64,000 nucleotides of DNA from an uncultured Nitrososphaerota archaeon (lineage in GTDB: Archaea > Asgardarchaeota > Njordarchaeia > Njordarchaeales > Njordarchaeaceae): assembly GCA_964518475.1 (NCBI GenBank), contig CAZFGR010000001.1:338641-402640 (forward strand). The letters run 5' to 3'. The notes beneath the pieces were generated by a model, which had not been told where the DNA came from, ran no database searches, and worked only from the letters and a program-made list of their open reading frames with translations. The position numbers and the translations under genes are program-made. Positions 4,041-56,342 of the stretch are shown one piece after another (position 1 is the first letter of the stretch; the number at the start of each line of letters is the position of its first letter).

Positions 4041-6590
4041 ATGGGCAAGCAATCAAGACTTGATATGTTCTTTCGACAAGACTCTTCGGGCAAAAAAACT
4101 ACTGAGATAATGGATAAAAACACCACTATTTCATCGCTAAGCGATATGATAAAGGAATTTAAGTCTAAAATAAAATTACCAGAAATAAGGGATACTATTA
4201 GTAAAAGATATTCTATAGGAGAGATAACCTCTAAAGCCAAGAAAATTCTTGTTGTTACTGAGAAACCAAAAGTTGCTCAGGCTATAGCGAAGGCTCTAGG
4301 ATCTGGTAAAGCACGTAGTATAAAATCGCGTTCAAGATCCCTCATTGTGTATGACGTAAATTGGAATAATAAGAAAATAACAATCATACCTCTCCGGGGA
4401 CATATCATAGAGTACGCACCCATAGACAGATTCTCTGGTAAATGGGAGGAAAGCGATCCTAGACAGATTATTAATCCTTCATCATTACGAGAGATTGTTA
4501 CGGAAAAATTAATTGCTGAGGTTTTAAGTGCTGAGAGCCGAAACGCCGATCTTTTACTGTTAGCTACTGATGCTGATGAAGAAGGTGCTAATATTGGATT
4601 AGAGGCCTACGAAATTGTGAGAAAACAAAGAAAGGATATTCCAGTGTATCAGATGTGGTTCATTTCTCTCCAACCCACTGAGTTGAGAACTGCTTTTAAT
4701 AAACCTATAGAGCCTAAGTGGAATTGGGCGTATGCCGTTAAAGCTCGTAGAATTATAGATGCCATGATAGGCTTTTCCGCAACAAGAGAACTCACGGTAG
4801 CTTTTAGAGAAGTTACCAAATCATTGCGAATTAAGGCTCTTTCTATAGGACGAGTGCAGACACCGACTTTATATCTTCTCTTCTTGCGTGAAAGAGAGAT
4901 AAAAAATTTTAAACCAAAGCCATACTGGGTGCTTAGAGCACAGTTCCAGATAAACGGCTCCAGAGCCGAAGGGCAGCACATTGATTCGCCTTTTTGGGAC
5001 GAAGAAAGAGCAAAAAACGTTTTTTCTAGAATAAGAGACGCACGTAGAGCGGTCGTTAAAGAAGTACATGTGTCTAAAGAATCGAAGCTTCCACCAACTC
5101 CTTTAGATACAACAAAAGCCTTAGCGATGATAAACAATATCTTAGGTATTCCTTCGTCGAGAGCTATGAAAATTCTAGAAGATCTTTATTTAAACGGCCT
5201 AATCACGTATCCTAGAACAGATACAGATAAATATCCGGAAACCTACAATCACATTCCCAACCTCAGAGCTTTGCAAAAAATCCCTACTTTCTCATCTATT
5301 GTAAGAGATATCTTCTCGAAAGGCGCAAAACTACGTAGAAATGGAACTAGGCTAGTTGGTGATCACCTTCCCATAACACCAATAGATGCTGCAACACCGG
5401 GAGATAAAAGATTGCCTACTCAGCAACATGCAATGGTATATGATTTAATTGTTAGGAGATATCTCTCTCTATTCTTGGAGCCTGCAGAAATAATCCGCTT
5501 TAAAGCGCTCATTGCCATTAATAGTGAGCTTTTCGAGTTTTCTGGGACTAGAATCTTAAAGAGTGGCTTCTATATTGTGTATCCCTACGATAAACCGAAG
5601 GAGTCTATCTATGCAGAGATTTTTGAGGGACAGGAAATCCTTGTTGAAAAGGTTTTTCCACCCGAGAAAAGGTATACCCAACCTCCTCCTCGCTTGAAGG
5701 AAAGCGATTTAATAAAGATCATGGAAACGCTTGGACTTGGTACAAAAAGCACAAGACCCGATCATATAGAGACGTTAATATCGAGACGATATGTAGAGAG
5801 AAAAGGAAAAACTCTGAGAATAACGAGTATTGGATGGATCTTAGCTGAATTTCTAGAACAAATATGGCCCGATTTCGTTAAACCATTCTTTAGCGCTTAC
5901 GTACATGCGTGGATGAGAAAAGTAATGAATGGAGAAATCCACTGGCAGGAAATGGTTCGGGATGTCCAAGAAAAGTTCCTTAGTTTGTTCGACGAGTTAA
6001 GAAAAAACATTACTAATCTCAAAGGAAAACTTCTAAAAGTCTCGAAAGAATATGCTCAAAAGAATGAAATAATGAAGTGTCCTAGATGTAACAGCTCGGT
6101 TATCGCTATACCTAGTAAGAAAGCAAAGGTAAACATCCTAAAGTGCACACACTGCGACTTCTCAACTATAGTGCCGAAAGCTACTAAATACGTCGCTCAA
6201 GAAATTAAGTGCTCAATTTGTCATACTAATGTATTATTACTTAAGAGAAGAGGAAAAGCCGATATATATCTATGCCCTATTTGTTGGCGTACAAAAGGAA
6301 TTTGTAGTAAATGTGATCATCTAGAATACTGTGATATGAAAAAAATTCTTGAAAAAGAACGAGAAAAAACTATTGTTGGGAAATGCGACTGTGGCGGAAA
6401 ACTAATTTATCTAGTAAATTGGCGCGTGGTAAAGTGTGATAATTGTAATCAACAATACCACTTACCTAAGAGAGGATCTATTAAATTGCTGAAAAAGACA
6501 TGCCCCATTTGTCAAAAGTATAGATTACTAAGAATAAAAACAGCGAAGAGCACAACATATTACTGTATAAAGTGCGGTATTGTGAAATGA
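4041..6590 (+). CDS. topA: DNA topoisomerase type IA (TopA/Topo III-like) with N-terminal PIP box and C-terminal Zn fingers
   Basis: TEKP, ATDADEEG (TOPRIM), SIGRVQTPTL, catalytic LITYPRTD, GLGTKSTR; many C-terminal CxxC pairs. Confidence 0.93.
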   Translation: MGKQSRLDMFFRQDSSGKKTTEIMDKNTTISSLSDMIKEFKSKIKLPEIRDTISKRYSIGEITSKAKKILVVTEKPKVAQAIAKALGSGKARSIKSRSRSLIVYDVNWNNKKITIIPLRGHIIEYAPIDRFSGKWEESDPRQIINPSSLREIVTEKLIAEVLSAESRNADLLLLATDADEEGANIGLEAYEIVRKQRKDIPVYQMWFISLQPTELRTAFNKPIEPKWNWAYAVKARRIIDAMIGFSATRELTVAFREVTKSLRIKALSIGRVQTPTLYLLFLREREIKNFKPKPYWVLRAQFQINGSRAEGQHIDSPFWDEERAKNVFSRIRDARRAVVKEVHVSKESKLPPTPLDTTKALAMINNILGIPSSRAMKILEDLYLNGLITYPRTDTDKYPETYNHIPNLRALQKIPTFSSIVRDIFSKGAKLRRNGTRLVGDHLPITPIDAATPGDKRLPTQQHAMVYDLIVRRYLSLFLEPAEIIRFKALIAINSELFEFSGTRILKSGFYIVYPYDKPKESIYAEIFEGQEILVEKVFPPEKRYTQPPPRLKESDLIKIMETLGLGTKSTRPDHIETLISRRYVERKGKTLRITSIGWILAEFLEQIWPDFVKPFFSAYVHAWMRKVMNGEIHWQEMVRDVQEKFLSLFDELRKNITNLKGKLLKVSKEYAQKNEIMKCPRCNSSVIAIPSKKAKVNILKCTHCDFSTIVPKATKYVAQEIKCSICHTNVLLLKRRGKADIYLCPICWRTKGICSKCDHLEYCDMKKILEKEREKTIVGKCDCGGKLIYLVNWRVVKCDNCNQQYHLPKRGSIKLLKKTCPICQKYRLLRIKTAKSTTYYCIKCGIVK

Positions 6591-6631: not shown

Positions 6632-6696
6632 GTGCTCCGAACTTAAAGGACTCATCATTAATATAATCAGAGATCACCTCCTTCTTCATCGCACAT
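6632..6696 (-). ncRNA. Box C/D guide RNA (16S 3' end plus 16S ~908-918)
   Basis: Minus strand reads GCGATGA-AGAAGGAGGTGATCT-CTGA-ttatatta-ATGATGA-GTCCTTTAAGTT-CGGA; guides are antisense to GAUCACCUCCU and AACUUAAAGGA. Confidence 0.8.
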
Positions 6697-6859
6697 CTAC
6701 TTCGACATAATAAGTATAGATTAATTTCTTTGTTGAATTTAATCCCGTATCACCTATCACTACGCTTAATCATCAATAATATAATATCAAACTTTAATAA
6801 CGGGAAATAATTGGTGAATTTAATTACACTCACATTGCGATTAGTAGGTTCTTAGCTTA

Positions 6860-7279
6860 ATGGTAAACGGATCTAAAGAGAGAAGACTTATGCACGATCT
6901 AATAGAATATGCTGAACTAGTAAGAGCTCGAATAAATCTGTTAGAGAAGAGAATAAGGGAAATACAATCAAACTTGGAGCAAATAGAAAGCGATTTCGAG
7001 GAAAGATCGGGTGTTGAGGAATTAGAGGAATTTTTCTCCAGACTTAATGATTCACAGGAAAGACTAGAAAAAATAAAAAGACTTATTGGTAGAGTCGATG
7101 AGTATATTCAGGAACTAGAAATAATTAAGGGACGTTCTGAAGTATATGATGAACTTCTTGAGAATACAAGCACATTACTAAAAATCGTAGAAAAAGATCT
7201 GGATAATATAGAAATAGAAACTGATGAGCTAATTGAAGATATAGAATCTTTAAGAGAAGAATTGGAAGAGAGTGATTAA
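6860..7279 (+). CDS. Acidic coiled-coil hypothetical protein
   Basis: 139 aa, heptad pattern throughout, very Glu/Asp rich; abuts the next gene. Confidence 0.75.
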   Translation: MVNGSKERRLMHDLIEYAELVRARINLLEKRIREIQSNLEQIESDFEERSGVEELEEFFSRLNDSQERLEKIKRLIGRVDEYIQELEIIKGRSEVYDELLENTSTLLKIVEKDLDNIEIETDELIEDIESLREELEESD

Positions 7280-7978
7280 ATGAAAGCTCTAATTCTTGCG
7301 GGTGGATTTGGTAAGCGACTAAGACCGTATACAGAAAACATCCCCAAGCCATTAGTTCGTGTTAAAGGAAAACCTATTCTTGTTCATCAGATTGAATGGC
7401 TAAAAAAATTTGGCATAAGAGATATCGTTTTAGCAGTAGGTTATTTAAAAGAAAAGGTAATTGAGGAAATTGGTAGCGGAAAAAACTTTGGTGTAAGAGT
7501 AGCTTATGTAGTAGAGGAAGAACCACTTGGTACAGCAGGAGCGATAAAAAACGCCGAAAATGTATTGCATAATGAGAAATTCTTTTTCGTATTGAACGGA
7601 GACATTATCACTGATATCGATCTCAATGTAATCATAGACAAAATCCTGAATAGCGGACACAATGTTCTTGGGGTACTTGCTTTAGTTCCTCTTCCAAGCC
7701 CCTACGGAATTATCGAAATTGATGATGAAGGAAGAATATTGCAATTTAGAGAAAAACCAGTACTAAGGAATTATTGGATCAACGCTGGTGTCTATTGCTT
7801 TAGGCCAGAGATATTTGAGTATTTACCAGAGAAGGGAGATATCGAAAGAACAGCGTTTCCAAAGTTGGCAGAAGAAGGTAAACTATTAGCCGTACCTTTT
7901 GAGAATGTCTTCTGGAAAGCCATTGATACGCATAAAGATATAGAAGAGGCAGAAAAACTTTTAGAAAGAAAAAGCTGA
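7280..7978 (+). CDS. Sugar-phosphate nucleotidyltransferase (NTP_transferase family)
   Basis: ILAGGFGKRLRP...PKPL, EPLGTAGAI, VLNGD, FREKP, INAGVY; no hexapeptide domain. Confidence 0.9.
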   Translation: MKALILAGGFGKRLRPYTENIPKPLVRVKGKPILVHQIEWLKKFGIRDIVLAVGYLKEKVIEEIGSGKNFGVRVAYVVEEEPLGTAGAIKNAENVLHNEKFFFVLNGDIITDIDLNVIIDKILNSGHNVLGVLALVPLPSPYGIIEIDDEGRILQFREKPVLRNYWINAGVYCFRPEIFEYLPEKGDIERTAFPKLAEEGKLLAVPFENVFWKAIDTHKDIEEAEKLLERKS

Positions 7979-7996
7979 TGACTTAGGACTTTTCAC

Positions 7997-8599
7997 TTAT
8001 TGTTTTATTCTTTGTTTTCGCACCATCCTTGTTTTTCTTAAATTATCTTCGCGAATTAATTGTTGCAGACCATTAAGTAGCTCATGTAACATCTCTATAT
8101 CCTTAAAATTCTTTACAAGCCCCTTCTTAAGCAATTCTTTACCGCATTCTCTAACTAGCATATTTGAGTCCAAAGGTTCATTATTCTTTTTTACTTCATC
8201 GAGTAATATCGCATAATAAGCCAAGGCAGCAAGAGTCCTAGTATTGTATTGTGATAGTATTTTAGCAAGCTTCCAAAGCTTGATTCTCTTTTCAGAACTA
8301 AGCATATGCGAAATAAGTAGTCTTCCTCTCTCTGTCAACACCAATTCTCCATTACTTTTTTCTGAGAGTTCCCCCAAAGACAACAATGCATTTACAGCAT
8401 TGTTTACGCTTGCCGCTTCCACCCCATCATTATATATCTCCAGTACTTCTAGTTTTTTTCCGAGATTACTTTCTCCTAAACAGTATTTCAGAATGATCAA
8501 CATGGCAGCTAATGCCCTTCTAGTTAATACAGAGCCCGTCCCTAAAGTTGCGTGCACAGAGACTATAATCTCAGCTATGATATTTGCTTTAGTTTTCAT
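7997..8599 (-). CDS. Hypothetical protein, possible winged-helix domain
   Basis: 200 aa ORF; VNALLSLGEL...LVLTERG resembles a wHTH wing. Confidence 0.55.
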   Translation of the reverse strand: MKTKANIIAEIIVSVHATLGTGSVLTRRALAAMLIILKYCLGESNLGKKLEVLEIYNDGVEAASVNNAVNALLSLGELSEKSNGELVLTERGRLLISHMLSSEKRIKLWKLAKILSQYNTRTLAALAYYAILLDEVKKNNEPLDSNMLVRECGKELLKKGLVKNFKDIEMLHELLNGLQQLIREDNLRKTRMVRKQRIKQ

Positions 8600-8671
8600 T
8601 TAAAAGCCCCATCTATTATTTTCCAGAAATCGATAAGTTATTTGTTTAAAAAAGAATGTGATAGAGAGCTA

Positions 8672-8729
8672 CAGATCAGCGTATTATCCTACTTGAAATT
8701 GATCACTGACTTTAGCATTAATCATCTTT
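8672..8729 (-). ncRNA. Possible box C/D RNA
   Basis: ATGATTA-ATGCTAAAGTCA-GTGA...TAGGATAATACG-CTGA with normal overall length; C' box not recognisable and no target identified. Confidence 0.3.
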
Positions 8730-8896
8730 ATTTATTCATTTAGAAGCTCGCGATCAAATTTATAAGTGATTATGACCTTGACCTAAAGAAACAAGAATCT
8801 AGGTTTAAGTAGCATTGATAGAATATGAAGAAGTTTATAACATCCGTTTGCTCAGAATAAGCACAAAACACAGAAGCAAGTATAAAAACTAGAAAT

Positions 8897-9000
8897 GCCG
8901 GGGTCGCCTAGTCCGGACCAGGGCGCCGGTTAAAGATAGGCGAAACTTGAGATCCGGTGGCGATTACGCCTCGCGGGTTCAAATCCCGCCCCCGGCACCA
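8897..9000 (+). tRNA. tRNA-Ser(TGA) with 15-nt intron at 30/31 (8930-8944)
   Basis: Cloverleaf with long variable arm; BHB helix CGCC/GGCG, bulges GG^T and AA^A; spliced arm CCGGA-CT TGA GA-TCCGG; CCA encoded. Confidence 0.9.
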
Positions 9001-9014
9001 TTACTTATTAACCC

Positions 9015-9073
9015 TTCGATGATGCGTACGGCCCCATCTGAGTTTCATGATGTAAGCTGGCATTACTGAGCTT
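9015..9073 (+). ncRNA. Box C/D guide RNA immediately downstream of tRNA-Ser
   Basis: ATGATGC-GTACGGCCCCAT-CTGA-gtttc-ATGATGT-AAGCTGGCATTA-CTGA, with 12-nt guides. Confidence 0.8.
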
Positions 9074-9643
9074 CTACGTGTACTCAACAGAGACTGTTTC
9101 CTTTCTTTTTTCACTTATGATCTCCTCTTTTTCAACTATGAGCTTATTATCCACATCAATCATTGAACTCAGAATTAGTAAAAACCAAGCCTTATCTCTA
9201 AGAGAAAATACATGTAAGCGATGCGAGAGAACTAGATAATAAATCTCAACTCCTTGTCTCCTATCTTTCTGTTCCTCTCCTTTGTAAGGCCTATGAAGAA
9301 CCTCCACATCTACTCCCAGAACCCCAGTAATATTGCCTACTATCTTAGGAATAGACTCCTGAGAATCTATTGGAATTCGTCGCGATATGTTTATTACCAA
9401 CGCCCTTTCCTTGTCATTGGGATGGGGTTGAATAGTTATAAGAATTGGTGGAAAATGGAGATATCGCGGGGGTAAAATAATGAAACGACTTGTTTCTTGT
9501 CTAATAACGTAACGTTTATAATTCTCCTTAAAGATGTCTCTGAGAATTTTTTCCAACTCATCACCAACTTCTGTTATATATGGAAACTCCTCAAGACTAA
9601 CACTCCTAAATTTATCATCTTTCTGGGGCTGCTTCGACCTCAT
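9074..9643 (-). CDS. Hypothetical protein
   Basis: 189 aa ORF filling the space between the sRNA and a divergent gene; no recognised motif. Confidence 0.65.
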   Translation of the reverse strand: MRSKQPQKDDKFRSVSLEEFPYITEVGDELEKILRDIFKENYKRYVIRQETSRFIILPPRYLHFPPILITIQPHPNDKERALVINISRRIPIDSQESIPKIVGNITGVLGVDVEVLHRPYKGEEQKDRRQGVEIYYLVLSHRLHVFSLRDKAWFLLILSSMIDVDNKLIVEKEEIISEKRKETVSVEYT

Positions 9644-9745
9644 CTAGCATGCCTCAATAAACCAATCTTGCTCCAAAATATGTATATAGTGTTAAAATTT
9701 CTTGTATAGGAAAAAACTGTTAAGAACTTATGTAAGGTGATTCTT

Positions 9746-10420
9746 ATGTCCCATGAAAAAAGAGGCCATCCATTAACTGAGGCAGAAACTAAAGCACTTC
9801 TCGAAAAATACGGAATCCCCTTCCCTAAAAGAGCTATAGCTAAGAGTAAGGAAGAGGCAGTTGAGAAAGCTAAGGAAATAGGTTTCCCAATTGTAATGAA
9901 AATCTTAAGCCCAGACATTATCCATAAAACAGATGTTGGGGGAGTTATATTAGACATAAAGAATGAAAATGAGGTCGCAACAGCATGGGACAACATGATG
10001 AACAATGTTAAGAAAAAAGCTCCATCAGCGAGAATCGAAGGTGTGTTATTAGAGGAAATGATTAAAGGCGGTTACGAAGTAATTATTGGAGGCCTGCGTG
10101 ATCCCGTATTCGGTCCTGTTGTAATGTTTGGTGGCTTGGGGGGAATTTATGTCGAACTTTTTGAAGATGTATCATTTAGACTTGCTCCAATAGACGAGAG
10201 AGAAGCTGAAGAAATGATGAAAGAAACTAAAGGTTATCAAATCCTAGCTGGTTATAGAGGAATGGAAAAAGGAGATTTAGAGGGACTCAAAAAACTTTTA
10301 GTAAAGGTTTCGCAAATAATGGCAGAACATTCAGAGATACTTGAGCTTGACTTGAACCCAGTGCGCGTCTTTCCAAATCGAGTCGTGGTTCTAGACGCTA
10401 AATGTATCGTCAGTCGGTGA
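9746..10420 (+). CDS. acdB: ADP-forming acyl-CoA synthetase beta subunit (ATP-grasp)
   Basis: MKILSPDIIHKTDVGGV (phospho-His), DPVFGPVVMFG, ELDLNPV; SD-like AAGGTGA before ATG 9746. Confidence 0.9.
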   Translation: MSHEKRGHPLTEAETKALLEKYGIPFPKRAIAKSKEEAVEKAKEIGFPIVMKILSPDIIHKTDVGGVILDIKNENEVATAWDNMMNNVKKKAPSARIEGVLLEEMIKGGYEVIIGGLRDPVFGPVVMFGGLGGIYVELFEDVSFRLAPIDEREAEEMMKETKGYQILAGYRGMEKGDLEGLKKLLVKVSQIMAEHSEILELDLNPVRVFPNRVVVLDAKCIVSR

Positions 10421-10653
10421 AGATATTGAAAAATGCTTACTTATTTCCATTCTTTTTAATATTATTCGCATGGTTATTCTTAGTCTTGATTATTCCAATT
10501 ATAGCTAAATTCTCTCTTACAATTATAATGCCTCATAGACTCCTAACAAATATTGCTAGAGTTCTAATCCCATTAATCACGTTCTTACTTTTCCTATACC
10601 TATGGTATAAGTTGGCTGAAATATATATAAACAGACTCTCAACACCTCAGTAA
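10402..10653 (+). CDS. Small two-TM membrane protein
   Basis: Two hydrophobic helices; overlaps the acdB stop; true start may be GTG 10417. Confidence 0.55.
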   Translation: MYRQSVKILKNAYLFPFFLILFAWLFLVLIIPIIAKFSLTIIMPHRLLTNIARVLIPLITFLLFLYLWYKLAEIYINRLSTPQ

Positions 10654-10758
10654 AAGAGGAAATTTTTACCTTATAGGTAAACTAGTCTGTAATAGTGTAA
10701 TTATTTTTAAGAAGAAATCTAACTCATAGCAAAATCGATTATCATTCATGAACTTTGT

Positions 10759-10815
10759 TGCAATGATGAAAAACCCCTTCTCTGATCATTGATGAGGGTT
10801 CCGAGTACTGAGCTT
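10759..10815 (+). ncRNA. Box C/D guide RNA
   Basis: ATGATGA-AAAACCCCTTCT-CTGA-tca-TTGATGA-GGGTTCCGAGTA-CTGA; all four boxes near-perfect, 12-nt guides. Confidence 0.9.
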
Positions 10816-10884
10816 TTAATTAACCATATTCTATAAATCTCAAATTAATTAGGGTTAAGAAATTGGGTCTTTTGGAGGAGATAG

Positions 10885-12060
10885 ATGAAAACCGATCTGT
10901 TCCTGATATATTTTGAGACCTCTATTATTCGGGCGTGGCCTCTAGATCAGAAAGGACTCCCCTTTTTAAGTCTTCTTGGAAAACCTCTGATAGTACATGT
11001 TCTTAATAATTATAGAGAAGCGCTAAACATAGGTGACATTTACTTACTCCATAATAAGCGATTAGATAGCAAAATAACTGAGGTTCTCTCACAGCATAGG
11101 ATAAATACTCAACAAATAAGCCTTAAAGAACTTAAAAGCGAAAGAGATATCCTAGCTAATCTATTAGAAGTAATCGCACCAGAATCCACATCCGATACTA
11201 TAACCATTGCATGGGCACATGATATAGTTGGTAGCTGGTTAGTAAAGGATTTCGCAGAGATAAATAAGGGGCACAGTTTTTTCCTATGTTCTAATAGAGG
11301 CAATCTAGGTCCCTTAGGTGGTATATGGGTACTAGATAGATCCACGATAGTAAATCTTCAAAAAAAGATTACAACAGTAGAAAAGGATCCTTGGAAGTCT
11401 ATAGTTCCATCGATTAAAGTTAATGGATATTCGATTCCCGTTTATCCATGGGAGTTTTTTCTAATATTTCATAAATTCTTGGAAAAAACAGTAAGCAACA
11501 AATATATTCATCCAGCGGCGAAAGTAAGCAAGTGGGCTTCAATAGAAGGCCCCGTATATATTGATGAAGAAGCAACAGTGCTTTCTTTCGCAAGTATTAA
11601 AGGACCAGCATATATTGGAAAAAATGTAGTAATCGGCGACCATACTCTGATAAGAAATAGTATTATTGAAGAAAACTGCGTAATAGGATGTCACATGGAA
11701 GTAGCTAGAAGCATTATACAACCAAAAACAGAAACTCATTCCGGCTTTCTAGGTGATTCCATTCTAGACGAAAAAACTCATTTAGGAGCAGGTTTTATCT
11801 CAGCAAATTTACGGCTAGACAGAAAAAATGTGCGCGTAAAAATAGGTAACAGAAAAATAGATTCTGGCCTGAAAAAACTAGGGGTGATAACGGGTTTTCA
11901 AGCAAATTTCGGTGTTTCTGTGTCAACTATGCCTGGTATCCTCGTAGGAAAACGTGCAATAATAGGTCCTGGAACCATTCTTTTTGAAAATGTACCTGAT
12001 GACACTATAGTATACAGCAAATGCGCTACCATTATCAGAAAGAAGGAATCTAAGGTTTAA
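10885..12060 (+). CDS. GlmU-like protein: degenerate nucleotidyltransferase domain plus left-handed beta-helix
   Basis: Hexapeptide repeats (IEGPVYID, IKGPAYIG), LGDSILD, GAGFISANLRLD, KKLGVI; the N-terminal GxGxR signature is absent. Confidence 0.75.
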   Translation: MKTDLFLIYFETSIIRAWPLDQKGLPFLSLLGKPLIVHVLNNYREALNIGDIYLLHNKRLDSKITEVLSQHRINTQQISLKELKSERDILANLLEVIAPESTSDTITIAWAHDIVGSWLVKDFAEINKGHSFFLCSNRGNLGPLGGIWVLDRSTIVNLQKKITTVEKDPWKSIVPSIKVNGYSIPVYPWEFFLIFHKFLEKTVSNKYIHPAAKVSKWASIEGPVYIDEEATVLSFASIKGPAYIGKNVVIGDHTLIRNSIIEENCVIGCHMEVARSIIQPKTETHSGFLGDSILDEKTHLGAGFISANLRLDRKNVRVKIGNRKIDSGLKKLGVITGFQANFGVSVSTMPGILVGKRAIIGPGTILFENVPDDTIVYSKCATIIRKKESKV

Positions 12061-12120
12061 ATTTTGCAGAGAGAAATACTCCTCTAGTTTCCTTCTTCCA
12101 GTAATAACGATGCATGATTT

Positions 12121-12336
12121 TTAAAGTTTAAGAATAAGCTCGGCTGCCTTTTTCACATCCTCTTTCATAATTGTTCTCCTTTTAGCATGTTGTGCCAATT
12201 CAACAGCTACCTTTGCGATTTTTACAACTATATCTTCAACAATTTCTCTCATAGTTTCTACGGCCTCTTTACTTACTCTCTCAGCTCCTGCTTTATATAT
12301 TAGCCTTCGAATACCCGCTAAAGACAAGTCCGCCAT
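12121..12336 (-). CDS. Archaeal histone (HMf family)
   Basis: LSLAGIRRLI, AGAERVS and HAKRRTIMKEDV histone-fold motifs; no tail. Confidence 0.95.
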   Translation of the reverse strand: MADLSLAGIRRLIYKAGAERVSKEAVETMREIVEDIVVKIAKVAVELAQHAKRRTIMKEDVKKAAELILKL

Positions 12337-12374
12337 GATGTTTCCCTCTCCAAATTATCTTGCTTTATATCATT

Positions 12375-12854
12375 TCATTTAGAAACGCATATTTTTGTAT
12401 TTCTATGCTTCGCAAAAGAAATAGCTTCATGAATAATTCTGCTTAAGAAAGACTTTGTTAATTTCTTCTCATTGGTTATCTTTTTAGCAATCGCTTCTAA
12501 AATCTTGAATAAGGCATCTATATCAGCATTAGCGGTAGCCTCTAATACAACATAGTTTATACCGATTCGTCCATCGATTTTTGATTTAAACTCCTTTAGT
12601 AGCACCCTAGTGTTATCTCTCAGAATTATCTCTTTAGCATATTTTCCAGCAATAGCTAATTCGACAGTAAACGCACTATTGCTTAATAGTTCAGTCACTA
12701 ATCTGCTTCTACGATTGTAATAATATTTAATAATCGGTCCAATGGCATCATCAAATTCTATAATAACTATTCCTCGTCCTCCTAAAGCTTTAAGAGATCT
12801 TCTCACAGAATCACTAAGTCTAAGTCGTTCTGGCTTCATTATCTTTTCTAACAT
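12375..12854 (-). CDS. Longin/uDENN-like domain protein
   Basis: IVIIEFDDAIGPIIKYYY matches the hhhxFxxxxGP beta-hairpin signature of uDENN/longin domains. Confidence 0.55.
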   Translation of the reverse strand: MLEKIMKPERLRLSDSVRRSLKALGGRGIVIIEFDDAIGPIIKYYYNRRSRLVTELLSNSAFTVELAIAGKYAKEIILRDNTRVLLKEFKSKIDGRIGINYVVLEATANADIDALFKILEAIAKKITNEKKLTKSFLSRIIHEAISFAKHRNTKICVSK

Positions 12855-13040
12855 TCTAGTTTACCCCACTCAAAATAAGGGAAAAATCACTTTTCTACCC
12901 CCTAAGATCTATCAATTTACTAAAAATATCAGATATTATCATGAAAATACTTCTACGTAACTTCAACAACATTTTTCTACAGTTTTCCGATGCATCATTA
13001 ATTTCCAGAGAAAATCAAAAAAGAAGAAGTTGGAAGGTAT

Positions 13041-13155
13041 TGGCGCCGGGGGGCGGACTCGAACCGCCGACCTCCCGGTTTCTGCCAATTTGTAGCTTAC
13101 TTATTTAGTTGTGCATGATAACAGCCGGACGCTCTACCAGCTGAGCTACCCCGGC
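13041..13155 (-). tRNA. tRNA-Asn(GTT) with 39-nt canonical 37/38 intron (13080-13118)
   Basis: Cloverleaf; BHB helix CTGT/GCAG, bulges TA^T and AA^A; CCA encoded. Confidence 0.93.
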
Positions 13156-13323
13156 AACCTTTTTCTATTACATAATACCCTCTACTAATTGGCAGAGGTT
13201 ATAAATTTAACTTTCTTTTACTCGATCTTCTCGCTTTATTTCTATTTCCTAGGTACGGATTTTTCCTATATTTAGTTTTATTTTAATCAACGGGAGAATA
13301 AGTATGTGAGAGTTTGTGAGGTT

Positions 13324-13737
13324 CTATTTCTTGGCGACGAACTTTGATGATCTTGTAGCTCCTTTTCCTGGAGCTGAGTGTTGTACTGGTTTATTCGTCG
13401 GAGCGAATTCTCCCAAATAGTGGAATATCATTGGAGGCGTTATTCTAATGGTTACAAATTCTTTTCCATTGTGTATTGCTATTTTTCTTCCAATCATTTC
13501 TGGTAAAATAATCATATCTCTGACATGAGTTCTGATTACTTTATTTGGATACTTTCTTAATTTTTCGAGCAATTTCCTTTGTTCGGGAGTTAAACCCCTC
13601 TTTAAGCTCCTTCTAATACGAGCTGGTGCTATCTCAGCTAGTTTTTCTAAGGGCATTTCTAATAATTCCTCTAACGTGTATCCACGATAAGTAAACCTTT
13701 TCCAGGAACTTGGTAATTTGCTAATATCAAGGCTCAT
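13324..13737 (-). CDS. rps19p: 30S ribosomal protein uS19
   Basis: [41 protein letters not shown]. Confidence 0.97.
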
Positions 13738-13855
13738 TGTTCATCCCAACCTTCAATAATACCTATGACTATTAAGCTTTTTCTATTCGCCAGCGTTTAT
13801 TTTAAAAGTATTCCCTTCTGATTCTTCCAAATTGAATGTTTATTCGGTGCTCCTC

Positions 13856-14332
13856 ATGTCTGAGGAATTACGAGTAAGAAAAATAAAGAATGGTACTGTA
13901 ATAGATCATATACCTAGCGGACGTTCTTTAGCAGTTTTACGAATTCTCGGAATAAAGGGTGATGAAGGACTAGTAGTTGCTATTGTAATGAATGTGGAGT
14001 CCCGTAAATTGGGAAGAAAAGATATTGTAAAGATAGAGGATCGTGAATTAAGCCAAGAAGAAGTAAATAAAATAGCTCTTATTGCTCCAACCGCTACGAT
14101 AAATATTATTAGAAATTACGAGGTTGTTAAAAAGTATAGAGTTTCTCTCCCTAACGAGATAGTTAATTTAGTAAGATGTGTGAACCCTACGTGTATTACT
14201 AATAAGCCTAACGAACCAATAAAGCCTCTTTTCACAGTTGTTTCTCGGAACCCAGTAAAACTTCAGTGCACTTATTGTGGCACATATATCAACTATAATG
14301 ATATACTGCTACAATTAGCAGGCAGAAAATAA
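13856..14332 (+). CDS. pyrI: Aspartate carbamoyltransferase regulatory chain
   Basis: [26 protein letters not shown]...CTYC zinc site. Confidence 0.96.
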
Positions 14333-14341
14333 AGTGTGACT

Positions 14342-14974
14342 TTAATAGAGGTACTGTTCAGTCTCCTCAACAACTATCCTATAAGATACCTCCTCACCCG
14401 CGGGTGTTAACTGTTTTAAAATCTCATAGGCTTTTTCTCCGAATTTTTTCCCATAACGCTTAATTAGTTCTTCTTTAGGAATTACTCTCCTCTTGATTTC
14501 TATTACATCACCTGGTTTTGCTCTAAGGATTCTTACTGCTGGATCCGTCACTAGTATCTTAGGTAATAGATCTGGGTTACCACCAGCATACCTCTCAATT
14601 ATTTCCTTAGCTTCTTCTGGAGACAACACTCGATGCTCTGGAACTAACCAGTGGTCAAAGATATAAACTAATGGGGCGCCTCTGTGTATAAATTCGACCT
14701 TGTTTTCTTTACCTATCTCCTCTGCTTGCGTAGTTACCTTATCCAAGGTGGCTATCATGATCTCATTGCATTCAAGTTCTCTTGCATCATTGATGACTCT
14801 CCTTACCAATTGAACGGATACTTGTCTATCTGTAACGTATACATAAGCTCTAGACTCTCCTTTCTTGAAAATTGCGACTTTTGCTCGCTCTTTCTCTTGA
14901 AGCTCTAGTAATTTATAACCTCTTCCTTTCTCCCAGATTTTCTTGACATTTTCCCAAAGTACGTCTATGCTCAT
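14342..14974 (-). CDS. rpoH: RNA polymerase subunit H/Rpb5, long form with N-terminal domain
   Basis: C-terminal [39 protein letters not shown]; about 105 aa extra N-terminal domain. Confidence 0.92.
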
Positions 14975-15060
14975 GCCACATCCCATATCTCACTATTCAC
15001 AATATTGTTATCAAAAAGTGATAGGAGTTATAAATAGATTTTGCGTGCGTAGATTATTCG

Positions 15061-16383
15061 ATGAGTATCAGGGTGAGAAGAATGTCCAAAAGATTACTCG
15101 GGCTCTTGTTCATATCACTATTACTACTATCGCTTAACACCACCTTATCTATAACCAGGATAAACAGTCAGAGCCAGGAACCCATAATTTTCGTCTATTA
15201 CTCAAGGGAAAACGAGCTCTCTAAGGGAGATCTAACCCTCTTCTTCCAGAAAATTAATAGTAGTGGCTTCGAATTAAAGGAAACTACTAGCCTAGAAGAT
15301 TATGGGACTCTAGAGGGAGCTGATGTCATATTAATCCTAGGCTCAAAAAATCTCAACTTTATCAAGAAGGATATATTGCTTAGATTCCTCGTTGAAGGTG
15401 GCTCGTTAATTATCGCTTTGCCAACGGAGAGTATTTCTCTCTACAACGACTTAGTACTGGAGTACTTTTCATACAAAATAGGAGGAACTATTAAGGATAA
15501 CACCTCATACTACGAGAAAATCTCAACAGTTATTGTTGATAACTCAACTATCTTATCGAATCACCCGCTCACCAAGAATTTATCAAAAATTATAGTTCCT
15601 GAAGGATTAGGACTTGTATATGAGAACAGTACGAATGTATTCCCATTACCTTACCACGCATACACCATAATCTGGGGATCGAACACTACATACATAGATA
15701 AGAATAATAATGATAAGAAAGACCCAGAAGAACCGTCTGGTAATAATGTTACATGTTGCCTTGTCATAGAGCTATATTCTGGTGGTAAGATTGTCATCTT
15801 ACCTTCTGTAAAGATGCTCTCTGATGAGCATTTATCAAATCCACGTTTCGGAAATAAATTCCTTGCTTACCGAATAATTGATTGGTTAGGAGGCCGGTAC
15901 GCGACCATCTATATAAAAGATCTAAAAGTTAGCACCACTTATATTGATCTAGACAATCCAAATTCTAGAGTAAATGTGAGCTTTGAAGTCGTGGACGAGA
16001 AAAACAGACCAGTAGAAAATCTCACTGCACTAGTATGCTTGGTAAGACTTGGTCACGTTCTCAAAAACTTCACAGCCATTCGAATTAACGAGACAAATTA
16101 CTATGTGGAGATATCATTTGAAAACCTAACAATTAGTAGAGGCATTATCTACTTAATGGTGTTGGTGTACAAGCAATTCTATGGATACTATTGGTCAGAA
16201 GCTGTAAGACTTTACTTGTATAAGAGCCCACTTCCCGTAACAGGTGCTGATCAAATATTACTCGTATTGGGATTTATAATACCTGTAATACTAGGGATAG
16301 TCCTACTTGTTGCAACATACCCAGAATATCGAAGAAATAGAGGACGATTAAAGAAAGCATACAAAAAAATCTCTAAGTCTTAG
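15061..16383 (+). CDS. Membrane-anchored protein with WBP1/OST48-GldG/IFT52-like domain and Ig-like domain
   Basis: Signal peptide, DVILILG..LLRFLVEGGSLII, HPLT, GGKIVIL..MLSD..N..LAYRIIDWL, C-terminal TM plus Lys-rich tail; many NxS/T sequons. Confidence 0.55.
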   Translation: MSIRVRRMSKRLLGLLFISLLLLSLNTTLSITRINSQSQEPIIFVYYSRENELSKGDLTLFFQKINSSGFELKETTSLEDYGTLEGADVILILGSKNLNFIKKDILLRFLVEGGSLIIALPTESISLYNDLVLEYFSYKIGGTIKDNTSYYEKISTVIVDNSTILSNHPLTKNLSKIIVPEGLGLVYENSTNVFPLPYHAYTIIWGSNTTYIDKNNNDKKDPEEPSGNNVTCCLVIELYSGGKIVILPSVKMLSDEHLSNPRFGNKFLAYRIIDWLGGRYATIYIKDLKVSTTYIDLDNPNSRVNVSFEVVDEKNRPVENLTALVCLVRLGHVLKNFTAIRINETNYYVEISFENLTISRGIIYLMVLVYKQFYGYYWSEAVRLYLYKSPLPVTGADQILLVLGFIIPVILGIVLLVATYPEYRRNRGRLKKAYKKISKS

Positions 16384-17512
16384 CCTTCTTTTCCTCTTCT
16401 TCTCTAATCTTCTTTATGATCTCGGATATTTTGACCTCTTTTTTCCTCTCTTCTCGCTTTTTGGCAACCTCTCTCTCCTTCCTAGATGCTATAGGAATAA
16501 TAGCTAATGCTGGTAACGGAAGAATGAGAAATACCACATATACAGGTCTTACTGGTAGAGTTCTCTCAACCCTCCATTTATCAATATCAAGCACCCATTG
16601 AAACAGGTTTATGAAGAATTTTGCTACATCTCCTACTTCTATCCAAGGTATACCGAGAGGAGAGGTAATATTTGTAAAAACTTGTCCAAATCCGAGCCCA
16701 ATTATTTTACCGTCATTTATCTTCTTAACGACAAGAATTGGGAACCCTTCTTGCTCCCACCTAATTTCATTATCTATATCTATGCTGCAAGCTGTTGGTA
16801 GTGTTCTTATCTTCATTAAATCTTCGGATTCCTCTATAATTTCTAGCGACGCTGTCTCTAGATATATTGGTGCAGATACGTTCTCTAAGAGCTTTTCTTT
16901 CAATTCCTCGTCGTCAAAGATTGTAGAATTTTGTAAAATTAGAAGACTACCATTCCCGTTTACATAATCGTATATTATGTCGCTTTTCTCGTTCTTAGCA
17001 TAAAAACGAAAGCCCACTGTGATATTATAAGTTTCTATATCTGAAAGAAGATCATTGATTAAAACCACACTTACGTTGTCCCTAAATGTTTCATCTATGG
17101 GAACACCAAGGAAGATGACGTTCCCACCTAATGAGACATAACTCGCTATTGCTCTAGCTTCTTCAGAGGCATACCTTACATATCCACTATTCGGTGGGAT
17201 CATAAGAATATCGACACCAGAGAGAAATGTCGCGTTGATTTGCCCTCTTAAAACTGTTACTTTAAGAGGAAGCGATAAAGAGTTATTGAGCTCCTCAAAC
17301 GCTATCATAAGTTCCTTGTAACCGAATAAAGGTGCGTGGTGCTCATCGATAGCAATCACTACAGCTTCTTTGATAAATATAGCTTCTTCCGCATGCAATT
17401 GTACGACGTTAGAAAAAGCAGTTGTTACGAGAGGAGACATTATCAATAAAAAAATGAGGAAGACTCTTGAATTGCTCGACATGATACTCGCTCTCTCCCC
17501 ATATTTTAGCAT
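16373..17512 (-). CDS. Membrane-anchored protein with GldG/IFT52/DUF4350-like (WBP1-related) domain
   Basis: Signal peptide, IAIDEHH, DILMIPP..E..AI..YVSLGGNVIFLG, GKIIGLG..FFINLFQW, C-terminal TM plus charged tail. Confidence 0.55.
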   Translation of the reverse strand: MLKYGERASIMSSNSRVFLIFLLIMSPLVTTAFSNVVQLHAEEAIFIKEAVVIAIDEHHAPLFGYKELMIAFEELNNSLSLPLKVTVLRGQINATFLSGVDILMIPPNSGYVRYASEEARAIASYVSLGGNVIFLGVPIDETFRDNVSVVLINDLLSDIETYNITVGFRFYAKNEKSDIIYDYVNGNGSLLILQNSTIFDDEELKEKLLENVSAPIYLETASLEIIEESEDLMKIRTLPTACSIDIDNEIRWEQEGFPILVVKKINDGKIIGLGFGQVFTNITSPLGIPWIEVGDVAKFFINLFQWVLDIDKWRVERTLPVRPVYVVFLILPLPALAIIPIASRKEREVAKKREERKKEVKISEIIKKIREEEEKKAKT

Positions 17513-17515
17513 CTT

Positions 17516-17725
17516 TTATTCGTAATACTTCTTCAAGATTTTTGCATAAATTTCTGCTTTTCCTCCAGTGGGTTCTGCCAGAACCTTACCACACACCAAA
17601 CATTTAACAATCGTGGATGCATGCGAGAAGATTATCTGCTTATTCGAACAGTCGGGGCACTGTACTAACAGGAAATAGGACTTTGGTTTTGGAAACAATT
17701 TTCTTAATTTGTCATCCCGCGTCAT
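17516..17725 (-). CDS. rps27e: 30S ribosomal protein eS27
   Basis: PKSYFLLVQCPDCSNKQIIFSHA..VKCLVCG..LAEPTGGKA. Confidence 0.96.
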   Translation of the reverse strand: MTRDDKLRKLFPKPKSYFLLVQCPDCSNKQIIFSHASTIVKCLVCGKVLAEPTGGKAEIYAKILKKYYE

Positions 17726-17739
17726 TCAAATCACCCATT

Positions 17740-17801
17740 GGTATCAGCTAAAGGAATTCTCTTCATTTATCTAATCGGAGGATCACCTCTTCATCATCTT
17801 A
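17740..17801 (-). ncRNA. Box C/D guide RNA (16S 3' end plus 16S ~911-921)
   Basis: Minus strand reads ATGATGA-AGAGGTGATCCT-CCGA-ttagataa-ATGAAGA-GAATTCCTTTAG-CTGA; guides are antisense to GGAUCACCUC and UAAAGGAAUU. Confidence 0.87.
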
Positions 17802-24159: not shown

Positions 24160-24281
24160 TTCTTCATATCAACAGTTATAACCTTAATCGATATAATGAA
24201 ATGATGCTATATTTAGTTTGTAATTTGTGATAAGTTTCCAAGCTACATATTTACTTAGTTTCTTTCTAAGTTTCTTTCTAA

Positions 24282-34373: not shown

Positions 34374-34473
34374 GCGGGGGTGCCCGAGAGGTCAAAGGGG
34401 CCAGTTTCCTAAGGTCATACTGAGGCTCTGGTGGCGCAGGCCTTCGCGGGTTCGAATCCCGCCCCCCGCACCA
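34374..34473 (+). tRNA. tRNA-Leu(GAG) with 14-nt intron at 30/31 (34405-34418)
   Basis: BHB helix GGCC/GGTC, bulges AG^T and AT^A; spliced arm CCAGA-CT GAG GC-TCTGG; long variable arm; CCA. Confidence 0.92.
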
Positions 34474-52474: not shown

Positions 52475-52533
52475 AAGCTCAGCGCTCCAGAACATCTTCA
52501 TCTCTCCGATTAATATTTTTTCTCATCATCGCT
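52475..52533 (-). ncRNA. Box C/D guide RNA targeting pre-tRNA-Trp C34
   Basis: ATGATGA-GAAAAAATATTAAT-CGGA-gag-ATGAAGA-TGTTCTGGAGCG-CTGA; D guide complementary to 56274-56284. Confidence 0.87.
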
Positions 52534-56241: not shown

Positions 56242-56342
56242 GGGGGCGTGGCCTAGCCAGGTTATGGCGGCCGGCTCCAGAACACTCTTCTTTAGGCGAA
56301 GAAACCGGTGTGTCCGGGGTTCAAATCCCCGCGCCCCCACCA
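56242..56342 (+). tRNA. tRNA-Trp(CCA) with 23-nt 37/38 intron (56281-56303)
   Basis: Cloverleaf; GCCGG-CT CCA G^A-CCGGT; relaxed BHB helix CTCC/GAAG; CCA encoded. Confidence 0.92.

Follow-up and report, generated by a model that had tools for sequence, protein, structure and literature searches.

Two box C/D small RNAs of a Njordarchaeales genome predicted to guide methylation of the 16S rRNA 3′ tail and the central-pseudoknot region

A 64,000-nucleotide stretch of contig CAZFGR010000001.1 (assembly GCA_964518475.1, positions 338,641 to 402,640; hereafter the window), from an archaeon of the Asgard order Njordarchaeales, encodes two box C/D small RNAs (sRNAs) on its minus strand, sRNA1 at window positions 6632-6696 and sRNA2 at 17744-17797 (box C to box D). 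Each carries one guide to the 3′ tail of 16S ribosomal RNA (rRNA), the site of the anti-Shine-Dalgarno (anti-SD) sequence, and a second guide to the linker between helix 27 (h27) and the h2 strand of the central pseudoknot. Judging from their sequences, both RNAs are most likely canonical archaeal box C/D sRNAs that direct 2′-O-methylation of 16S rRNA at positions 912, 915, 1532 and 1533. A first-pass annotation of the window had gone further and proposed a U3-like folding chaperone or checkpoint that keeps immature 30S subunits out of initiation, an idea that we weigh below against methylation.

Anatomy of the two RNAs and their pairing with 16S rRNA

Both loci are complete four-box (C, D′, C′, D) sRNAs with two 12-nt guides each. 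Read from 6696 to 6632, sRNA1 consists of GTGC, G, ATGAAGA, AGGAGGTGATCT, CTGA, an 8-nt spacer, ATGATGA, GTCCTTTAAGTT, CGGA and GCAC, while sRNA2, read from 17797 to 17744, consists of ATGATGA, AGAGGTGATCCT, CCGA, an 8-nt spacer, ATGAAGA, GAATTCCTTTAG and CTGA. Their parts, all on the minus strand, are as follows.

6632 to 6696, minus strand: sRNA1, full, with a 4-bp terminal stem (GTGC 6694-6691 / GCAC 6635-6632)
6683 to 6689, minus strand: sRNA1 box C, ATGAAGA (variant)
6671 to 6682, minus strand: sRNA1 D′ guide, AGGAGGTGATCT, to 16S G1529-U1540, predicting Cm1533
6667 to 6670, minus strand: sRNA1 box D′, CTGA
6652 to 6658, minus strand: sRNA1 box C′, ATGATGA
6640 to 6651, minus strand: sRNA1 D guide, GTCCTTTAAGTT, to 16S A908-A918, predicting Um912
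6636 to 6639, minus strand: sRNA1 box D, CGGA (variant)
17744 to 17797, minus strand: sRNA2, box C to box D (17740-17801 in the first-pass annotation)
17791 to 17797, minus strand: sRNA2 box C, ATGATGA
17779 to 17790, minus strand: sRNA2 D′ guide, AGAGGTGATCCT, to 16S G1529-C1538, predicting Um1532
17775 to 17778, minus strand: sRNA2 box D′, CCGA
17760 to 17766, minus strand: sRNA2 box C′, ATGAAGA
17748 to 17759, minus strand: sRNA2 D guide, GAATTCCTTTAG, to 16S U911-U921, predicting Am915
17744 to 17747, minus strand: sRNA2 box D, CTGA

The terminal boxes of both RNAs are capable of forming a kink-turn (k-turn; AUGAAGA/CGGA in sRNA1, AUGAUGA/CUGA in sRNA2), and an 8-nt spacer splits the internal D′ and C′ boxes in each, as in archaeal C/D guides. 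The RNAs are 54-65 nt long and carry nothing outside the boxes and a pair of 12-nt guides. Applied to the entire genome, a strict four-box scan returned 50 loci, including sRNA1 and sRNA2, compared to 0 in the reversed genome; box anatomy and scan together confirm the earlier claim of two minus-strand C/D RNAs. The same scan picked up two more four-box C/D sRNAs in the window, at 10763-10811 (plus strand) and 52479-52529 (minus strand).

At gathering thresholds, Rfam reported only tRNAs, and neither sRNA reached any curated C/D family, as expected because guides define these families and the present guides are absent from Rfam. All sub-threshold Rfam matches covering either locus end to end are to C/D families, the best being sR14 (22.6 bits, threshold 38) and sR20 (17.7 bits, threshold 44). 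The window has ten tRNA genes, four of which (8897-8997, 13044-13155, 34374-34470 and 56242-56339) are 97-112 nt long and for that reason are presumed to contain introns. A scan for bacterial-type promoters and terminators, a type of scan not applicable to archaea, gave nothing above shuffled sequences. sRNA1 occupies an intergenic stretch flanked by the end of a topoisomerase IA-like gene at 6590 and the start of an open reading frame (ORF) at 6860, and its 3′ stem is followed by a run of six T.

The metagenome-assembled genome (MAG) that contains the window comprises 121 contigs and is 91% complete, with both 16S and 23S rRNA unassembled, and we therefore tested pairing on the 16S rRNA of relatives, one from the same genus (genome G005, locus L009) and one from the same order (G010, L004). 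Contigs of two metagenome runs compared with the same-genus 16S yielded short mixed-organism fragments, none attributable to this genome. In this order 16S and 23S rRNA do not form one operon: the two genes are convergent in G010 (C11, 390761-396110) and lie on separate contigs in G005 (C57 and C138), where no 23S was found within 1.5 kb downstream of the 16S.

We counted as targets only runs of at least 10 bp, because 9-bp runs gave a "target" for 29% of shuffled guides. On the same-genus 16S, the D′ guide of sRNA1 forms 12 bp (11 Watson-Crick and 1 G-U) with GGAUCACCUCCU, placing C1533 at the N+5 position, and that of sRNA2 forms 10 Watson-Crick bp with U1532 at N+5. The D guides form 11 Watson-Crick bp with A908-A918 (sRNA1, N+5 at U912) and 10 Watson-Crick plus 1 G-U bp with U911-U921 (sRNA2, N+5 at A915). 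The N+5 pair is Watson-Crick in all four of these 10-12 bp duplexes (G-C, A-U, A-U and U-A), and all four guides are therefore predicted to be methylation-competent. Shuffled guides matched the observed run length in 0, 25, 123 and 15 per 4000 trials for the four guides. The two target regions and the four D+5 sites given in the first-pass annotation (C1533/U912 and U1532/A915) are thus all reproduced. Its 15-nt first D′ guide, in contrast, is really 12 nt long, the leading AGA being the end of box C, and the supposed precursor-specific extension past the mature 3′ end to UCU disappears with it: the bases in question belong to box C, which reads ATGATGA in relatives and precedes a guide position 12 that can be A, G or U. 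The 16S 3′ flank after CCUCCU is AAAGAA in the same-genus and GGUGGA in the same-order genome, neither of them UCU.

The genome also encodes the proteins of a C/D ribonucleoprotein (RNP), with fibrillarin (322 bits) and Nop5 (229 bits) in adjacent genes and L7Ae (95 bits) in addition, and it contains a KsgA/Dim1 gene. For one window protein the closest matches come from MAGs labelled Candidatus Njordarchaeota (Asgard), at 68% identity, and this DNA is present in sediment and hydrothermal-vent metagenomes, with no RNA dataset among those listed for the locus. G+C content is 62-65% for rRNA versus 38% for the genome, which together with the 50 sRNA candidates gives the pattern of a thermophile.

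Conservation of the guide pairs and a third tail guide

We aligned 13 homologues of each RNA, from four families of the order, by their boxes (G000 denotes the window's genome). The pattern ATGAWGA, 1-3 nt, GAGGTGATC occurs in 14/14 genomes of the order, mostly twice, compared to 9/386 other genomes of the phylum, and the out-of-order matches that we inspected are a Shine-Dalgarno (SD) sequence with a start codon, not sRNAs. Such matches are what could be expected if SD-like GAGGTGATC strings merely fell near box-like words and no RNA were made, an explanation that is barely credible for the two loci here: the pattern is concentrated in the order, the box set and guides are conserved where the flanks are not, four-box loci number 0 in the reversed genome, and each RNA has a second guide with an independent match to 16S rRNA. 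A relaxed pattern (TGAWGA, 0-6 nt, GGTGATC, 0-6 nt, CNGA) run on 400 Asgard genomes was set aside as too permissive without context. A metagenome scan for the pair of tail and 912/915 guides (GAGGTGATC, 12-30 nt, TCCTTTA) returned chance matches, with 0 of the 119 matches listed in a C/D context, and is uninformative on distribution.

Across the homologues, boxes and guide positions 2-11 are invariant, and variation falls in the spacer, the flanks and guide positions 1 and 12, as predicted for a guide bound in an RNP. In the sRNA1 D′ guide it is positions 1 and 12 that vary around an invariant 2-11, and in the sRNA2 D′ guide positions 2-12 are invariant across the order; box D′ of sRNA2 is degenerate in three homologues. 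In sRNA1 the fifth position of box C and the second of box D, which face each other in the k-turn (3b.3n), covary, being A/G in G000 and G002, U/A in G005 and U/U elsewhere.

The second guides are conserved over a much shorter range. The sRNA1 D core CCTTTAAGT is kept in register in all six genus genomes that have the RNA (G000, G001, G002, G004, G005 and G006), whereas the three sister families combine the tail guide with different D guides. Among these, the type A(A/G)CCCGGCTTT forms 10 Watson-Crick pairs with sister-family 16S near the base of h24, and others are orphans. The U912 guide could not work in the sister family because its 16S differs in that segment, reading GAAACUGAAAGGUUUAGG (L004, G010) in place of the near-universal GAAACUUAAAGGAAUUGG. 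The 5′ end of the sister-family 16S reads GAACC, not GAUCC, so that the central pseudoknot carries a compensatory change from U17-A918 to A17-U918 (G010 versus G005). For sRNA2, 11 of 13 homologues have a variable, A/T-rich orphan as D guide, and the A915 guide is present only in G000 and its closest relative G002. By sequence, then, the pairing of tail with 912 is kept only within the genus. This agrees with Lui et al. (PMC6009581), who saw conservation of long-range double guides reach past the genus only rarely and gene-abutting sRNAs tend to lose one guide. We found no shared flanking proteins for sRNA1 (G000/G005), for sRNA2 (G000/G003) or for the third RNA described next (G000/G003), and with no synteny between species, orthology is judged from the RNA sequences themselves.

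A third C/D RNA lies in the same genome on contig C7 (about 24200-24275, minus strand; locus L138). Its D′ guide, (C)CTAGAGGAGGTGAA, pairs with UCACCUCCU and has C1535 at N+5, predicting Cm1535. This RNA has a degenerate C box (GATGACC) and D box (GAGA) and a 5-bp stem (GGGGC/GCCCC), and its D guide has an ambiguous target, either 9 bp in h40 or 7+2 bp at U891 (h27). By their predicted sites, the three RNAs tile the 16S tail at U1532, C1533 and C1535. An RNA of G003 with the third RNA's tail guide carries the D guide GAATTCCTTTAT, directed to A915, and every A915 guide that we found within the order sits on an RNA with a tail guide. Such repeated linkage of tail and h27/h2 guides could reflect avidity or a role in assembly; it could equally have arisen by paralogues with a common GAGGTGA core trading their 3′ halves, a shuffling of guide modules of the kind described by Dennis et al. 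(PMC4644070). Because the loci are non-syntenic between species, we make no choice among these causes.

Guides and methyls known from other systems

Methylation of the 16S tail has been measured by mass spectrometry and RiboMeth-seq in Nanoarchaeum equitans (Um1528, Gm1530 and Am1534) and Ignicoccus hospitalis (Cm1533; Seistrup et al., 2017, PMC5389701), where the N. equitans methyls were assigned to C/D sRNAs and Cm1533 of I. hospitalis had no known guide. Neq sR13, sR20 and sR25 and the Ignicoccus Cm1533 site thus resemble the present RNAs in placing C/D guides or methyls at the tail and anti-SD; the D′ guide of NeqsR20 is perfectly complementary to GCUGGAUCACCU (PMC4644070 supplement). Neq sR13 (A1408 and A1534) likewise reaches from the tail to a remote core site within one RNA, and it has been proposed to act as an RNA-guided checkpoint replacing the missing RsmA/Dim1 (PMC5389701). 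The systems differ in the partner site, which is 912/915 (h27/h2) here and A1408 or 23S C1920 in Nanoarchaeum, in the tail sites, which are U1532, C1533 and C1535 here, and in the host, an Asgard archaeon that keeps KsgA/Dim1.

Guides to the 912/915 region are found among the RNA-Seq-identified sRNAs of Sulfolobus acidocaldarius and Methanopyrus kandleri (Dennis et al., 2015, PMC4644070 supplement). The Sac-sR101 D guide GTCCTTTAAGTA and the MKAsR114 guide ATCCTTTAAGTG are essentially identical to the D guide of sRNA1 (U912 register), and the MKAsR70 D′ guide GAATTCCTTTAG is identical to the D guide of sRNA2 (A915 register). As read from the listed sequences, the partner guides of Sac-sR101 and MKAsR70 are complementary to CUGGGGAGU(A/U)C, in the 885 region about 25 nt away; these two are local double guides, whereas sRNA1 and sRNA2 are long-range. 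In both organisms the 912/915 guides occur with other partner guides than in the present RNAs. Long-range double guides have themselves been published, among them Neq sR17 (A915 and U1370), Neq sR15 and Pca sR56 (Dennis et al., 2015, Table 3, PMC4644070; Lui et al., 2018, PMC6009581), and guides to distant sites have been proposed as RNA chaperones (Dennis et al., 2015, PMC4644070). Like sRNA1 and sRNA2, these address 16S sites hundreds of nucleotides apart and are mostly conserved at the genus level; however, each published pair addresses the two strands of a single future helix (h28, h30), while the tail and 912-915 do not pair with each other in the mature subunit.

U3 small nucleolar RNA (snoRNA) is a C/D-class RNA that, as here, pairs with the central pseudoknot on its 3′ side, and it thereby keeps the pseudoknot from forming too early. 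U3 has a long 5′ domain (boxes A′/A and hinges) that pairs with the 5′ external transcribed spacer and the 18S 5′ end, and B/C boxes with U3-specific proteins; it does not methylate and is needed for cleavage. These hallmarks are absent from the RNAs of the window, which have no extended 5′ domain and whose second guide addresses the 3′ tail of 16S rRNA, not its 5′ end. The proposed U3-like nature is therefore not supported: we found no U3 features, the N+5 pairs are intact, and there is no precursor-specific complementarity. According to a 2021 review, no U3-like RNP is known in archaea, nor any snoRNP acting on folding independently of modification (PMC8339473).

Methylation and other possible roles

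If the two RNAs are ordinary methylation guides, they would assemble with L7Ae, Nop5 and fibrillarin into standard small ribonucleoproteins (sRNPs), as part of a set of at least 50 in what appears to be a thermophilic Asgard archaeon. sRNA1 would methylate C1533, in the tail region that pairs with GGUGAUC-type SD sequences, together with U912, and sRNA2 would methylate U1532 and A915, the latter in the linker between h27 and the h2 strand. Because 2′-O-methyl groups favour the C3′-endo sugar pucker, we infer that these methyls may stiffen and protect the single-stranded tail and stabilise both the SD:anti-SD helix and the junction of the central core at high temperature. Placing two guides on one RNA would add binding avidity. 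An sRNP bound via its D guide would bar G916-A918 from the pseudoknot, and one bound via its D′ guide would bar the tail from mRNA, as would any archaeal sRNA with these guides. The occlusion described in the first-pass annotation thus stands to the extent that a bound RNA would cover the anti-SD tail and the 916-918 strand, but we saw no sign of the accompanying chaperone role or of any other role beyond guiding. Such joint holding of two 16S segments in single-stranded form would be a by-product common to many double-guide sRNAs.

Several points weigh against this account. sRNA1 combines a variant D box (CGGA) with a variant C box (ATGAAGA), although both variants covary. The pairing was established on same-genus 16S, the organism's own being unassembled. 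The 613-617 nt between the two targets is the largest spacing among this genome's double guides (most well-targeted ones in G000 have sites less than 350 nt apart), and plain methylation needs no such spacing; nor does it predict the repeated joining of tail and h27/h2 guides on several distinct RNAs. Finally, anatomy, complementarity, conservation and the protein genes are observed directly, whereas expression, methylation and any effect on the ribosome are what we infer from them.

In a tether or checkpoint reading, the double guides would be selected to hold the tail and the pseudoknot 3′ strand in one RNP, delaying pseudoknot closure and anti-SD exposure until late in 30S assembly, with methylation secondary or serving as a release signal. 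Both D guides span G916-A918 and both D′ guides span the tail, no other double guides in the genome reach as far, and the coupling recurs as C1533 with U912 (sRNA1, in six genus genomes), U1532 with A915 (G000 and G002) and C1535 with A915 (the third RNA type, in G003), the A915 guide being confined within the order to tail-guide RNAs. A like idea has been put forward for Neq sR13 and for long-range guides generally (PMC5389701, PMC4644070), of which the present checkpoint or chaperone proposal is a restatement for analogous archaeal sRNAs. We nonetheless consider such a tether unlikely. The coupling is lost beyond the genus, where sister families join the tail guide to a different guide or an orphan, as long-range double guides rarely persist past the genus (Lui et al., PMC6009581); 11 of 13 sRNA2 homologues make do with an orphan D guide; and in Sulfolobus and Methanopyrus the 912/915 guides share their RNA with a guide to the nearby 885 region. 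The N+5 pairs are intact and complementarity is neither extended nor precursor-specific, KsgA/Dim1 is present and there is therefore no missing checkpoint to replace, and 3′-half swapping among GAGGTGA-core paralogues can explain the recurrence. More doubtful still is the elaboration in which three tail-tiling sRNPs, coupled to h27/h2 guides, form a late-assembly clamp that keeps the anti-SD tail and the pseudoknot 3′ strand in one RNP until methylation releases them, as a modification-coupled functional forerunner of U3-type pseudoknot control among the prokaryotes closest to eukaryotes.

The position of sRNA2 raises a different possibility, as its box D lies 19 nt upstream of a ribosomal protein gene.

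17516 to 17725, minus strand: gene for ribosomal protein eS27 (S27e; Pfam PF01667, 91 bits), with its own GGGTGA Shine-Dalgarno sequence

An ORF starts at a similar distance after box D in 11 of 13 sRNA2 homologues, with a similar N-terminus in the same-genus copies, although only the window's ORF was identified as eS27, and in a sister family box D abuts the GGTG SD sequence of the downstream ORF. sRNA2 might thus be mainly a cis element of the eS27 leader, acting as a k-turn bound by L7Ae or as an SD mimic that tunes translation to ribosome supply, with guiding secondary. Its D′ guide is indeed a perfect extended SD sequence, and L7Ae is reported to bind k-turns in archaeal 5′ leaders (PMC5539422). 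A simple SD mimic, however, would not need the full C, D′, C′, D layout or the conserved register of the guide to D′; two homologues (G003 and G008) lie away from this gene yet keep boxes and guide, and archaeal sRNAs are often co-transcribed with neighbours without a regulatory role (PMC6009581). We therefore regard a chiefly cis-acting sRNA2 as highly improbable. A small-subunit rRNA guide hosted by the gene of a small-subunit protein recalls the snoRNAs found inside ribosomal-protein genes.

As annotated, these RNAs add to the few archaeal guides catalogued for methylation of the anti-SD tail, and they document C/D sRNAs in an Asgard order; a literature search found no paper on, or catalogue of, Asgard C/D sRNAs. 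By analogy, sRNA1 would offer a concrete guide design for Cm1533, which was measured in Ignicoccus but had no known guide there. The novelty is modest, comprising a third tail guide (Cm1535), the recurrence of tail with h27/h2 guides and the placement of sRNA2 in the eS27 leader. On present evidence the practical value lies in correct annotation, and the chaperone idea is still a hypothesis. If the coupling of the two targets does prove to be under selection, these RNAs would allow a test of the long-standing but unproven notion of 30S folding being chaperoned by archaeal double guides.

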